A stretch of DNA of 64,000 nt, taken from assembly GCA_965227515.1 (NCBI GenBank), contig CBDDFZ010000001.1, positions 1,216,001-1,280,000 of the forward strand. Reading direction: 5' to 3'. Shown here one piece after another: positions 1,224-5,835 of this stretch (position 1 is its first letter; every line of letters starts with the position of its first letter). Source of the DNA: Alphaproteobacteria bacterium. Its GTDB lineage: Bacteria; Pseudomonadota; Alphaproteobacteria; CALKHQ01. The notes beneath the pieces are model-generated. The model saw only the letters and a list, made by a program, of their open reading frames with translations, was not told the DNA's origin and did not search any database. A program made the position numbers and the translations under genes.

Positions 1224-1441
1224 GGCGGCGTTTCCTCTCTGATTGGGGGGAATCCACGCGGAATTGCGACGCTACTCTACCTAGCCGGATTCCCCAGCAC
1301 GGACCAGCCCGTTTTCCTTGCATATGCGACAGTTTGCGGACATCGCGATAATGCTAGGATGCACAAGCAGTGTCATTCGGCCTGACGTTGGCGCCCACGC
1401 GGCCCGCCGACCGACCAGGCCATCTACCGCGAGAGGGCCGC

Positions 1442-3046
1442 ATGGGCGAGGGCAACGGAACCCATCCGAACGGGCTATTCATCGGCAAGGGCGACGAGGC
1501 GCAGTACCTCGATCTCGCCTATGCCAACCGGCACGGTTTGATCACCGGCGCCACCGGCACCGGCAAGACCGTGACCCTGCAGATCCTGGCCCAGGGTTTC
1601 TCGGACGCCGGCGTGCCGGTCTTCGCGCCGGATATCAAGGGCGACCTCGCCGGCATCTCGCAGGCCGGCGAGATGAAGGATTTTCTCACCAAGCGCGCCA
1701 ACACCATCGGTCTCGACCCCTACGTCATGGGTGGCGCGCCGGTGGCGTTCTGGGACCTGTTCGGCGAGGACGGCCATCCGGTGCGCACAACCGTTTCGGA
1801 GATGGGCCCGCTGCTGCTGTCGCGGCTGATGGGGCTGAACGACGTGCAGTCCGGCGTGCTCGACATCGCGTTCCGCATCGCCGACGAGCAGGGCCTGCTG
1901 GTGCTCGACCTGAAGGACCTGCGCGCCCTGCTGGTCCATGTCGCAGAGCAGGCGAAGGACATCTCGATCACCTATGGCCAGGTCAGCCGGACCTCGGTCG
2001 GCGCAATCCAGCGCCGTTTGCTGTCGCTAGAGGAACAGGGCGGCGACAAGTTCTTCGGCGAGCCTGCGCTGGCGCTTTCGGACCTGATGCGCAAGGACAG
2101 CGCCGGGCGGGGCGTGGTCAACATCCTCTCCGCCTCCGCGCTGATGACCGAGCCGAAGCTCTACGCCACCTTCCTGATGTGGCTGCTGGCCGAACTGTTC
2201 GAGCAATTGCCGGAAGTGGGCGACCCGGACAAGCCGAAGCTGGTGTTCTTCTTCGACGAGGCGCACATGCTGTTCCGCGACGCGCCGCCGGCACTGGTGG
2301 AGAAGATCGAGCAACTGGTGCGGCTGATCCGGTCCAAGGGCGTCGGCGTGTTTTTCGTGACCCAGAGCCCGCTCGATATTCCGGACCGGGTGCTGGGCCA
2401 GCTCGCCTGCCGTATCCAGCACGCGCTACGCGCCTTTACCCCGCGCGACCGCAAGGCGATCGCCGCGGTCGGCGACACCTTCCGCCAGAACCCGAAGTTC
2501 GACGCCTCGGCGGTGATCCCCGAACTCGGCATCGGCGAGGCGCTGGTCTCCACGCTGCAGGCCAAGGGCGTGCCCTCGATGGTGGATCGCACGCTGATCA
2601 GGCCGCCGGCCTCGCGCATGGGCCCGATCAGCGAGCAGGAACGGGCGGCGATACTGGGCGAGAGCCCATTGCGGGCGATCTATGGAAAGGCGATCGACCG
2701 CAAGTCGGCCTACGAGATGCTGCAGGGACGGGCCGACGAACGGCCGATGGACCGCGCCGGCGACGGCGATTACGAAGGCTGGGGCCGCCCGGCCAGGACA
2801 GGCGGCGGCTGGGGTGCCGCCGGGTCGACCGAACGCGCCGAGGTGCAGCGCGACGAGCAGCCGCGCGCGCGGTATTCCCGCGACCGCACCTCCGGCGACG
2901 ATGGATGGGGCAAATCGAAGTCCCGGTCGTCCAGCCGGCAGACCGCAGGCGAGGCATTCATCAAGTCATTGTCGCGCAGCGCCGGCACCCAGATCGGCCG
3001 CCAGCTCACCCGGGGCCTGCTCGGCTCGCTGTTCGGCGGGCGTTAG
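1442..3046 (+). CDS. yjgR: HerA-like P-loop ATPase, DUF853/YjgR family
   Basis: [16 protein letters not shown] (Walker A), FFDEAH (Walker B), [15 protein letters not shown] and a C-terminal RGLLGSL. Start moved to ATG 1442, behind GAGAGGG. Confidence 0.88.
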
Positions 3047-3182
3047 AGCGCCGCGAAACTCATTCCGCGTAGATGGGCTAACGGCCCTTGTTTGGTGGCG
3101 TGCATGAGTGGTCGTCCCTCAAGATGTCGGTGTCATACACGGAGTCGGGTTTGCCGCTCCAAGACATCGAGGAGAGACGACC

Positions 3183-4226
3183 ATGAACTACTATGCCGGG
3201 ATTGACGTTTCTTTGGAATGGTCATCGGTATGCGTTGTTGACGGCGCGGGCGGGATTGTCTGCGAGGCTCGTATTGCGAGCACGCCGGCGGGTTTGTTGT
3301 TGTGGTTTGGGTCTTTGGGGATTTCGGTTGAGCGGATTGGTCTTGAGGCGGGGCCGTTGTCGCAATGGCTTGTGCGGGAGTGCGCGCAGGGCGGTCTTTC
3401 GGTTGAGTTGCTGGAGACGCGTCATGTTGCGCGGGCCCTTTCGACGATGCCGGTGAAGTCGGACCGCTCGGACGCACGCGGGATTGCTCAGCTGATGCGT
3501 GTGGGCTGGTTTCGTCCGGTTCACTGCAAGTCTTTGGCGGCCCAGGAGATGCGGGCCCTTTTGAAGGGTCGCGACCAGCTCCGCGCGAAGCTGCACGATC
3601 TTGAGATGCACCTTCGTGGTCAGCTGCGGAACTTCGGGCTGAAGGTAGGGCACACCACCAGGCGCAGCTTTTCGACACGTATTTCGGAGCTTGTGGCGGG
3701 GCATCCGGTACTGGAGGCGGTGGCGGGGGCGCTGCTGTCGGCACGCGATGGCCTGTTGCTATCGTTCACGGCGCTGGACCGGCAGGTCCGGGCGGCGGCG
3801 CAGGCCGACGATCGCGCTCGCCTGCTGATGACGGTGCCGGGCGTGGGGAGCATTGTCGGACTGACCTACTTGTCGGGAGTGGACGACCCCGGGCGGTTTG
3901 CCTCGTCGCGCCTGGTGGGTGCGCACTTCGGCCTGACGCCGACCAAGCGCCAGTCGGGCGAGAGCGAGGTGATGGGGCGGATATCGAAGGTAGGGGACGC
4001 CGATGTGCGCTCGGCCCTCTATGAGGCGGCACACGTGGTTCTGACCCGGCCGATCGAGGGCGGCTGGCTGAAGAGCTGGGCGATGAAGCTGGCCAGGCGT
4101 GCGGGCATGAGGAAGGCGAAGGTCGCGCTGGCGCGCCGGCTCGCCGTGATCATGCACCGGATGTGGGTTGACGGCACACCGTTCAACCATGCCGGACCGG
4201 TGCGCCCGGCGATGGCGACAGCATGA
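3183..4226 (+). CDS. IS110-family transposase/recombinase
   Basis: RuvC-like DEDD residues (AGID, GLEA, KSDRSD), HhH motif VPGVG and serine motif RQSG. GGAGAG RBS before ATG 3183. Confidence 0.95.
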   Translation: MNYYAGIDVSLEWSSVCVVDGAGGIVCEARIASTPAGLLLWFGSLGISVERIGLEAGPLSQWLVRECAQGGLSVELLETRHVARALSTMPVKSDRSDARGIAQLMRVGWFRPVHCKSLAAQEMRALLKGRDQLRAKLHDLEMHLRGQLRNFGLKVGHTTRRSFSTRISELVAGHPVLEAVAGALLSARDGLLLSFTALDRQVRAAAQADDRARLLMTVPGVGSIVGLTYLSGVDDPGRFASSRLVGAHFGLTPTKRQSGESEVMGRISKVGDADVRSALYEAAHVVLTRPIEGGWLKSWAMKLARRAGMRKAKVALARRLAVIMHRMWVDGTPFNHAGPVRPAMATA

Positions 4227-4299
4227 TGGCCGCGGCATAAGGAGAACCGACACACGAGCTTCGACGGGCACCGACACCGGCCCGTCGAGCGCCGTCCCG

Positions 4300-4460
4300 C
4301 GCCGGGACGATGGATCAGGTCAGGCCGCCATCCGGGATGTCGCCTCGCATGAGAGCACGCTTCCGTAGATTGGACCGACCGATCCTCGCATATCCATCTT
4401 GGCGGCGGCCCTGCGCCGACCCCGTACAGAAGCATGACCCAGGCGCCGGGACGACGAAAA
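4300..4460 (+). ncRNA. Predicted bridge/seek RNA of the IS110 element (ends approximate)
   Basis: Guides: CATCCGGG 4329-4336 (complement of the right target flank), CGTAG 4364-4368 (left target flank plus core), CCATCTT 4394-4400 (complement of the circle junction) and TACAGAAG 4425-4432 (element right end). The target guides are enclosed by GGATC/GATCC and GGTC/GACC stems. Confidence 0.75.
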
Positions 4461-4492
4461 AGGGATTGACCAACAATGGCCCGTTACAGAAG

Positions 4493-4589
4493 CCCGGATG
4501 CAGCGGCGCGCAATCCGGGGCCTTTAGTGCTGGAAGGCTGGGCGATGGAAGGTATGTCCCCGGGTTTCGCTGCGCTCCACCCGGGCTAC
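4493..4589. repeat. GTAG-type REP doublet whose left arm is split by the IS110 (its GTAG is at 3069-3072)
   Basis: CCCGGATGCAGCGGCGCGCAATCCGGGG ... CCCCGGGTTTCGCTGCGCTCCACCCGGGCTAC. Same family as 40643-40730 and 44807-44892. Confidence 0.85.
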
Positions 4590-4623
4590 GATTGTTGGTG
4601 CCTTCCGATCGCAACGGTCATGC

Positions 4624-4653
4624 AAAAGGCCGCGCCCAAAGAAGGACGCGGCC
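4624..4653 (-). terminator. Rho-independent terminator downstream of the TelA-family gene
   Basis: Minus strand GGCCGCGTCC-ttcttt-GGGCGCGGCC-TTTT, just past the stop codon. Confidence 0.6.
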
Positions 4654-4680
4654 CTTGGCAGTTCGATTCTGAAGTGAGCG

Positions 4681-5835
4681 TCAGGCGGTGGCCTGGGCGG
4701 CGCGCTGCAGCGATTCCTTCAGCTTGTTCTCGGCGTCGATCAGGTCCTGTTCCGCCGCGCGGCGCTTGGTGCGCCCTTCCTCGGCGATGCGGATCGAATC
4801 CTCGATGGTGCCGATCAGGTTCTCGTTCGCCGCCTTCACGACCTCGATGTCGTAGATGCCGCGCTCCATCTGCTCGCGGATCTGCGCGTTGGACTGGCGC
4901 AGATTTGCGGCGTTGGCGCTCAGCAGCTCGTTGTTCAGGTCGTGGACCGCCTTCACCGTCTCGCCGGCCTCCGCCGCGCGATACATGGTCACCGCCTGGG
5001 CGAGCTGGGTCTTCCACAGCGGGACGGTGTTCAGGAGGGCGGACTGGATCTTGTTGACCAGCATCTTGTCGTTTTCCTGCACCAGCCGGATGGAGGGCAG
5101 GGACTGCATGACGACGGTGCGGGTCAGCTTCAGGTCGTGGACCCGGCGCTCCAGCTCGTCGCGCGCCGAACTCAGGTCGCGCAGCGCCTGGGCATCGGCC
5201 ATGTCGCCGGTTTCCTCGGCCTTCTTCGCCAGCGCCGGGATGTCGGTCTCGTCCAGCCGGCGCAGCTTCTCCTCGCCGGCGGCGATGTAGTCGGCCAGCT
5301 CGTGGAAATACTCCAGCGTCGACTCATACAGCCGGTCGAGCATCAGGATGTCCTTCAGGAGCTGCTGCTTGTGCTTGTCCAGCGTGTTGGTCAGGCTGTC
5401 GATCTGGTTGCCGACGGTCTCGTACTGCTGGATGAAGCGGGCCACCGGCGAGATGGCACCGAACATGCGCGCGATGAAGCCCGGCTTCTTGCCGTCCTTC
5501 AGGTCGTCGATCTCCAGGCCGCGTACCTGGAGCATCATGTTGTTGAGCGCTTCGCCGGCCGGGCCGGTGTCCTTGTTGCGCACGCCTTCCAGCATGGTTT
5601 CCGACACTTCGGTCACCTGGCGCTGGGCCTGTACGCCAAAGGCGATGATCGAGTGCGAATCGCTCATGTCGATCTGCTCGATCAGACTCTCTATCTTCTG
5701 CTTCTCTTCCGCCGACGCCTCGTTGTAGACGACGATGTTGGCGGCAGGTTCGGTCAGCGTCTTCAGCGCCTCGTCAGGCACTTCGGTTGCGGTCACGGTG
5801 GGTGCGGCAACCGTCTGGGTCTGGGTCTCGCTCAT
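4681..5835 (-). CDS. Toxic anion resistance protein, TelA/KlaB family
   Basis: Coiled-coil protein with SIIAFGVQAQ, LERRVHDLKLTR, QSLPSIRLVQEND and TVPLWKTQLA. Confidence 0.88.
   Translation of the reverse strand: MSETQTQTVAAPTVTATEVPDEALKTLTEPAANIVVYNEASAEEKQKIESLIEQIDMSDSHSIIAFGVQAQRQVTEVSETMLEGVRNKDTGPAGEALNNMMLQVRGLEIDDLKDGKKPGFIARMFGAISPVARFIQQYETVGNQIDSLTNTLDKHKQQLLKDILMLDRLYESTLEYFHELADYIAAGEEKLRRLDETDIPALAKKAEETGDMADAQALRDLSSARDELERRVHDLKLTRTVVMQSLPSIRLVQENDKMLVNKIQSALLNTVPLWKTQLAQAVTMYRAAEAGETVKAVHDLNNELLSANAANLRQSNAQIREQMERGIYDIEVVKAANENLIGTIEDSIRIAEEGRTKRRAAEQDLIDAENKLKESLQRAAQATA

Follow-up and report, generated by a model that had tools for sequence, protein, structure and literature searches.

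IS621, of the IS110 group (structures 8wt6–8wt9), pairs a DEDD/Ser recombinase with a two-part RNA that holds left and right guides for both target and donor DNA, and combines a 2-nt core, a circular intermediate and a repetitive extragenic palindromic (REP) target. In the IS1111 group, which is marked by subterminal inverted repeats (7–17 bp, set in from the tips) and by a longer non-coding end downstream of the gene (PMC11187229; PMC11208160), Siddiquee et al. 2024 (PMC11187229) describe seekRNAs, and Durrant et al. 2024 (PMC11208160) report bridge RNAs predicted by covariance models and manual inspection of ISfinder entries in 93.0% of the elements. Here we analyse an IS1111-group (IS110-family) insertion sequence of 1420 bp, located at 3073–4492 on the plus strand of a 64,000-nt stretch of an Alphaproteobacteria bacterium (GTDB lineage Bacteria; Pseudomonadota; Alphaproteobacteria; CALKHQ01; GenBank assembly GCA_965227515.1, contig CBDDFZ010000001.1, positions 1,216,001–1,280,000), called the window below. 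We consider with high confidence that the 3′ non-coding end of this active element encodes a predicted bridge (seek) RNA, which would guide recombination by the transposase at an AG core.

The locus shares most of its layout with the elements that Siddiquee et al. describe (PMC11187229). As in ISEc11, ISPa11, ISKpn4 and ISPst6, the non-coding region follows a transposase of about 340 aa and the inverted repeats are subterminal, and the natural retargeting by guide change described there would have a counterpart here. The guide order is that of the ISEc11, ISPa11 and ISKpn4 seekRNAs, with the complement of the top strand lying 5′ of the match to the bottom strand, and the sizes fit as well: 161 nt for the RNA closed by its basal helix, P0, against 145–170 for the 'long' seekRNAs, and 84 nt for the target arm against 70–100 for the 'short' ones. 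The target, GTAG/CCYGGRTG (the slash marks the insertion point), is a REP-like sequence that differs from the targets of the published seekRNA elements. In the seekRNA descriptions of that paper, no donor guides are assigned. Placement of the RNA in the right end is also that of the predicted IS1111 bridge RNAs of, for example, ISPpu10 and ISPa11 (PMC11208160), for which target and donor complementarity of 8–14 nt is given, with donor nucleotides in a multiloop, as here; some of those elements target REP sequences too.

IS621 differs in that its RNA lies upstream of the gene, its guide order is reversed, its core is CT and its donor loop is a simple internal loop; similarity between its protein and the transposase described here is detectable in the C-terminal domain only (E 2.6 × 10⁻¹¹). 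ISPpu9, as described in PMC12288879, shares the REP target, the use of one AG in the target and one in the element for recombination, and a 5′ untranslated region (UTR) structure that inhibits translation. Unlike the present element, ISPpu9 belongs to the IS110 group and is without inverted repeats, and its downstream Ssr9 RNA is described there as not required for transposition and as moving as a separate module.

Element ends and four guide matches

The ends of the element follow from its other copies. A DNA search of the genome that contains the window gave 20 near-full-length copies (89–100% identical) and a two-piece deletion derivative, along with five further short matches to the element's right flank alone. 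Left flanks are unrelated between copies except for nGTAG immediately before ATGGGCT (20/20 detectable left ends). Right ends read ...TTACAGAAG (...TTATAGAAG in the derivative), followed in 21/21 copies by CCYGGRTG and the remainder of a REP-like palindrome. Because the flanks align across these copies, the ends lie at 3073 and 4492, where the preliminary description of this DNA had put them. Only AG is common to target and element, and insertion is site- and orientation-specific, without a long target duplication; the AG core proposed earlier fits all 21 copies and all of the relatives considered below. The stop codon ends at 4226, which leaves the 266-nt 3′ non-coding end on which the preliminary description was built, against 110 nt at the 5′ end. 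Subterminal inverted repeats, found by locally aligning the two 45-nt ends of the element with the last one reverse-complemented, begin 6 nt inside each tip and agree at about 16 positions, with one mismatch and two single-base gaps; together with the longer 3′ non-coding end, they mark an IS1111-group element. End anchors recovered 19 full-length copies, all with open reading frames (ORFs) of 345–347 aa. With ORFs intact in every readable copy, the family looks active, and the element at 3073–4492, with about 20 copies, is evidently so.

The features that the argument needs are as follows.

3068–3072, plus strand: left half-target (CGT plus the AG core) adjoining the element; nGTAG at 20/20 left ends found
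3073–4492, plus strand: IS1111-group insertion sequence, 1420 bp; ends from 19 full copies, one diverged copy and one derivative, same genome
3079–3096, plus strand: left subterminal inverted repeat, from 6 nt inside the tip; local alignment of the end 45-mers
4293–4306, plus strand: 5′ strand of P0, the helix that closes the multiloop; helix 1, 5/7 pairs changed on both sides
4312–4321, plus strand: 5′ strand of the target-arm basal stem; helix 2, 93.4% of cells paired, 5/8 pairs compensatory
4329–4336, plus strand: predicted right target guide, complement of the right-flank top strand; exact over 8 nt, covaries with the flank
4344–4353, plus strand: distal cap hairpin of the target arm, CTC-gcat-GAG; read from the sequence, missed by RNAalifold
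4364–4368, plus strand: predicted left target guide, same sense as left flank plus AG core; equals 3068–3072, tracks the flank in relatives
4376–4385, plus strand: 3′ strand of the target-arm basal stem; helix 2
4394–4400, plus strand: predicted right donor guide, complement of the circle junction (core plus left-end start); read from the sequence, CCCAT/GGCAT follows the left end
4402–4423, plus strand: hairpin between the donor guides (4402–4409 with 4415–4423); helix 3, 93.9% of cells paired, 4/7 pairs compensatory
4425–4432, plus strand: predicted left donor guide, same sense as the right-end tip; last 7 nt equal the tip in 19/19 rows
4439–4453, plus strand: 3′ strand of P0; helix 1
4469–4486, plus strand: right subterminal inverted repeat; local alignment of the end 45-mers
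4493–4520, plus strand: right half-target, a REP-like palindrome starting CCCGGATG; common to all copies

Four segments of the 3′ non-coding end match the recombination partners, and each match named in the preliminary description was recovered at its position. CATCCGGG (4329–4336) is the reverse complement of the right flank at 4493–4500, exact over 8 nt, and CGTAG (4364–4368) equals the left flank plus core at 3068–3072. CCATCTT (4394–4400) is the reverse complement of the element's last 3 nt joined to its first 4 nt, that is, of the circle junction, and TACAGAAG (4425–4432) equals the element's last 8 nt (4485–4492). In a strict chance test, 20,000 dinucleotide-preserving shuffles of 4227–4484 contained these exact strings, in that order, 384, 1678, 129 and 16 times; at least two of the four occurred together in 63 shuffles and all four in none. 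In a lax test, which accepted any match of the observed length anywhere in 20 nt of target or circle junction, the observed values were reached in 2998, 255, 81 and 308 of 3000 shuffles, and all four together in 0/3000. The preliminary description had rested its argument on the four matches jointly, and that is where its strength lies: the set is absent from both sets of shuffles, and no single match suffices.

Covariation of guides with flanks and tips

A megablast search of the element against plasmids gave no match, and a DNA search of the three other genomes of the same family found its RNA end in 0/3, so that no close copies outside the genome were usable for comparison. A scan of one genome per species yielded 29 related loci at 43–69% protein identity, mostly from Alphaproteobacteria. 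Since an automatic inverted-repeat search upstream versus downstream of these relatives returned mostly spurious repeats, motif-based end finding was used instead, and conserved tip motifs located the element ends in 21/29 loci. The resulting alignment, A1, has 19 rows: 17 non-redundant relatives and two variants from the window genome. Left out of it are L032, L042 and L045, whose guides duplicate those of kept rows, L044, which has a different RNA-end layout, and the loci without a right end.

First, nearly every lineage has a different sequence in the right-target-guide segment, and the reverse complement of that sequence stands in the lineage's own right flank. In 15/19 rows, guide and own flank match exactly over a stretch of 7 nt or longer (up to 12), against 6 nt or less for unrelated flanks, except in two pairs with related targets; at least 12 different pairs of right guide and flank are seen. 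The left target guide tracks the left flank more weakly than the right guide tracks the right flank: of its last 8 nt, a mean of 5.75 agree with the own flank, against 3.71 for other flanks, and contiguous flank matches span 2 to 8 nt in 12 rows.

Second, the donor segments follow the element's own ends. The last 7 nt of the left donor guide equal the right-end tip of the same element in 19/19 rows, in three states (ACAGAAG in 6, AGAGAAG in 12 and AGCGAAG in 1), and the right donor guide follows the left-end start, with CCCAT where the end is ATGGG and GGCAT in L046, where the end is ATGCC. The preliminary description had proposed comparing relatives that have other insertion sites; in this comparison the guide positions change with the flanks and the donor segment changes with the tip.

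Third, the window genome itself contains a natural guide variant. All copies sit at nGTAG/CCYGGRTG in REP-like palindromes, and the genome has a further 114 unoccupied GTAG+CCYGGRTG sites (60 CCCGGGTG, 33 CCTGGGTG, 18 CCCGGATG and 3 CCTGGATG), against none for a reversed-pattern control. The copies form two subfamilies whose guides are one base apart (G/A): subfamily A, 13 copies with guide CATCCGGG, and subfamily B, 7 copies with guide CATCCAGG. Subfamily A occupies CCCGGATG in 9 copies, CCCGGGTG in 2 and CCTGGGTG in 2 (CCC 11, CCT 2), whereas subfamily B occupies CCTGGGTG in 6 and CCTGGATG in 1 (CCT 7/7). This split between CCC and CCT is significant (Fisher p = 4.6 × 10⁻⁴), and each subfamily departs from what is available: subfamily A is at its perfect complement in 9/13 copies against an availability of 0.20 (p = 1.7 × 10⁻⁴), and subfamily B is at CCT in 7/7 against 0.34 (p = 5.3 × 10⁻⁴). 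The split is the one that base pairing predicts, because the A of the B guide pairs with T and not with C. The G of the A guide pairs with C and wobbles with T, and the U opposite the R position takes A or G, again as base pairing predicts. On balance, we favour reading this as natural retargeting of a bridge RNA by a single base, with the A-containing guide confined to CCT and the G-containing guide preferring its CCC complement while tolerating rG–dT and rU–dG wobbles.

One copy, at C1:927754 of the window genome (G000; locus L014), is a hybrid: its transposase is identical to that of subfamily A at 345/347 positions, and its 3′ non-coding end and guide are those of subfamily B. It suggests that guide modules have been exchanged between copies by recombination.

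Among the relatives, both guides of L030 fit its flanks poorly, and in L037 the right guide matches over 4 nt though the left guide matches over 8 nt; these may be off-target insertions, or their guides may have changed after insertion. The 3′ end of L044 (L044:2505-3081, a contig of a Hyphomicrobium sp. metagenome-assembled genome) contains two modules like the target arm, each on a separate basal stem and each with a different right guide. That of the second module, TTCCGTCC, fits the right flank actually present over 10 nt, core included; that of the first, TTCGATCC, fits the guide of L051. L044 may be a natural case of a bridge RNA locus that offers a choice of two target arms. Inspection of A1 by eye for a reciprocal pattern of core complements between the right target guide and the right donor guide found none. 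Also by eye, the ATTGG that follows the left target guide resembles the left-end start but is unchanged in L046 and L040 despite their different left ends, and it more likely belongs to the basal stem than to a 'handshake guide'.

Several further observations concern the insertion sites. The REP-like palindromes come in facing pairs about 70–78 bp apart, with GTAG on each outer side, and the unoccupied exact sites number 57 per strand. The window element (right flank 4493–4591) sits in the left REP of such a pair, whose partner lies at 4578–4589 on the minus strand. The insertion is in an intergenic REP region and leaves uninterrupted a 558-aa ORF (1370–3046) that ends 26 bp before the element and has weak, sub-threshold matches to HerA/VirB4-like ATPases. 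The derivative mentioned above (G000:C1:998357; loci L021/L022) is an 825-bp internal-deletion form at its own GTAG/CCTGGGTG site. It retains the two ends, the 5′ portion of the gene and the donor half of its RNA, but the target-binding arm is gone. As a non-autonomous form, it could perhaps be mobilized in trans.

RNA fold, proposed mechanism and alternatives

RNAalifold on A1 finds three helices: P0, the target-arm basal stem and the hairpin between the donor segments. Over its 22 pairs, 91.3% of cells pair and 14/22 pairs are changed on both sides; 0/500 shuffles reach any of the five measures used, and slid partners pair in 38–54%. The outward extension of P0 to 4293 comes from the single-sequence fold. 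The stems that the preliminary description had picked out by eye, GGATC (4312–16) with GATCC (4381–85) and GGTC (4318–21) with GACC (4377–80), are present and gain comparative support as helix 2, and its CTC-gcat-GAG cap is present at 4344–53; relatives carry longer cap hairpins at the same place (by eye). Its GGCG/CGCC hairpin between the donor guides was rightly placed, but the comparative register pairs 4402–4409 with 4415–4423. The two target guides lie on opposite sides of an internal loop above helix 2, in one arm, and in the consensus fold the donor segments are single-stranded in the P0-closed multiloop, beside a covarying hairpin. Covariation, the plus-strand fold, and a guide order and downstream location like those given in PMC11187229 together support the bridge/seek RNA reading of the preliminary description.

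On this reading, the element would excise as a circle, as tested relatives do. Its joined tips would probably create a promoter, from TTGACC near the right end, a 17-nt spacer (TTGACC lies 21 nt from the tip) and GAAG joined to the left-end AT, giving a transcript that covers gene and RNA; junction promoters are reported for the family in PMC12288879. The bridge RNA, about 160 nt from 4293 to 4453 on the plus strand, with P0 closing the multiloop, would then be processed, bind the transposase and pair with the target and the circle junction, on both strands of each; its production, its binding by the transposase and its guiding of recombination are all taken from what the family does. In the internal loop of the target arm, the top strand of CCYGGRTG would be the pairing partner of the right target guide on the 5′ side, and the bottom strand of GTAG that of the left target guide on the 3′ side. 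The donor segments would read the circle junction, where the right-end tip meets the left-end start at the AG core, and the complex of RNA and DEDD/Ser transposase would recombine the circle with REP-like sites at the AG core.

Several results weigh against this reading, in whole or in part. The 5-nt left target guide CGTAG, taken alone, is not above chance (1678/20,000 strict and 2998/3000 lax shuffles). In 4/19 rows the right guide fits its flank poorly (L015B, 5 nt with the rest wobble; L030, 5; L037, 4; L053, 3), and the core complement CT that follows the right target guide in most relatives is AT in the window. Folding energy is unremarkable (z −1.58 for the whole non-coding end and −2.07 for the target arm), and when the free RNA is folded to minimum energy, the two target guides pair in part with one another, leaving no open loop; free-energy arguments being weak, the structure was rested on covariation instead. 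Rfam 15 gave no match on 2900–4800 at E up to 1, though it may hold no IS1111-type model, and no sigma-70-like promoter was found in the linear copy. Two further points bear on the donor segments. The left donor guide changes its state by clade, so that its three states stand for few independent changes, and a donor-guide role is unproven in the IS1111 group, because a short ISEc11 seekRNA with only the target matches sufficed for transposition in the experiments of PMC11187229.

Those two points also speak for an unlikely alternative, in which only the target arm (about 4307–4390) is functional guide RNA, the protein recognizes the ends by their subterminal inverted repeats, and something other than guiding, for instance protein binding to the DNA or a structural role, keeps the internal tip copy in place. 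According to PMC11187229, an 82-nt ISEc11 seekRNA that contained the target matches was enough and worked even more efficiently (42%), and the importance of the inverted repeats for the IS1111 family is emphasized there; the core complement of the right donor guide, moreover, varies among the relatives in A1. Against this stand the identity of the left donor guide with the tip in all 19 rows, which extends over its three states, and the GGCAT that accompanies ATGCC in L046. The donor segments are also single-stranded in the P0-closed multiloop, beside a covarying hairpin; a multiloop is where donor nucleotides are predicted for many IS1111 elements (PMC11208160).

A far less probable alternative takes the right-end tip copied inside the element for a second recombination end, comparable to the B/B′ boxes of ISPpu9, with shorter modules moving alone and the other matches being relics of old insertions. 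PMC12288879 describes repeated end boxes, several circle types and an AG core in REP targets for ISPpu9, and a deletion derivative is present in the window genome. However, the internal tip runs on into the same internal sequence in 21/21 copies and never adjoins a REP flank; nhmmer returned 20 full matches and one partial match, all inside elements, and no solitary RNA module. The right target guide, as a reverse complement of the flank, cannot have arisen by duplication, and it covaries with flanks in relatives. With no copy ending at the internal tip and no solitary module, we rejected this alternative.

An antisense RNA from the minus strand, for which the guide matches would hold on the opposite DNA strands if the RNA were reversed and whose single-sequence energy is slightly lower (−80.6 against −72.5 kcal/mol), is comparably improbable and was rejected: the reverse-complement alignment has a far poorer RNAalifold consensus (−7.99 and 13 pairs, against −15.47 and 22 pairs for the plus strand), the many G–U pairs of the plus strand (for example, UG at columns 44/114 in 14 rows and at columns 38/119 in 7) would become A–C mismatches, and the IS1111 RNAs published in PMC11187229 run in the sense direction, downstream of the gene.

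Transposase, flanking features and significance

The remaining features of the element lie around the bridge RNA.

3108–3184, plus strand: 5′ UTR hairpin burying the ribosome-binding site and start codon; −39.9 kcal/mol, z −5.15, 0/200 shuffles as stable
3183–4226, plus strand: transposase, 347 aa, with a DEDD RuvC-like domain and a Tnp domain; Pfam, NCBIfam and IS621 alignment
4258–4290, plus strand: hairpin just upstream of the bridge RNA; −20.4 kcal/mol, z −3.46, like hairpins in relatives by eye
4466–4471, plus strand: TTGACC, candidate −35 box completed in the circle only; TTGAC at a fixed place in 18/19 rows, function inferred

The transposase has an N-terminal DEDD domain (PF01548, E 1.6 × 10⁻¹², 47.9 bits against a cut-off of 29) and a C-terminal Tnp domain (PF02371, E 2.3 × 10⁻²⁰), and it scores 239.4 bits, against a cut-off of 140, over model positions 1–343 of the NCBIfam equivalog NF033542 ('IS110 family RNA-guided transposase'). 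Candidate catalytic residues are D8, E55, D94, D97 and S258. The four acidic residues stand opposite the IS621 motifs in an HMMER alignment whose N-terminal stretch alone is not significant, and GLTPTKRQSG aligns with GLTPRRYESG, the Ser-Gly motif of IS621 chain 8wt6_A; PMC11187229 defines the motif of the IS110-family C-terminal domain as GL-P----S(T)G. The closest proteins found are 68% identical to the transposase.

The 5′ UTR hairpin is likely a translational brake that would keep translation low, and relatives have a like arrangement with a different sequence (by eye). Terminator-like hairpins with T-rich tails (3 found, against 1.3 expected) include those at 3075–3087 (plus strand) and 4494–4468 (minus strand), which overlap the inverted repeats and point inward; they could stop read-through transcription from entering the element.

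Because the location, guide order, sizes, multiloop donor segments, REP target and AG core are all as published, the mechanism is not new. The element is a new example of a mechanism described in 2024, a new member and not a new kind, and Supplementary Table 5 of Durrant et al. or the ISfinder lists may already hold it or an isoform. It reveals no new mechanism, but it is a clean case for the question of whether the donor segments of IS1111 elements act as guides, as the guides, core, donor ends and fold of an active, natural, predicted RNA-guided recombinase can all be read from the DNA. The 114 unoccupied sites and the two guide variants make up a built-in data set on the tolerance of an IS1111 bridge RNA for mismatches and wobbles. 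IS1111-type bridge RNAs are less studied than that of IS621, and the element adds an orthologue for tool development.

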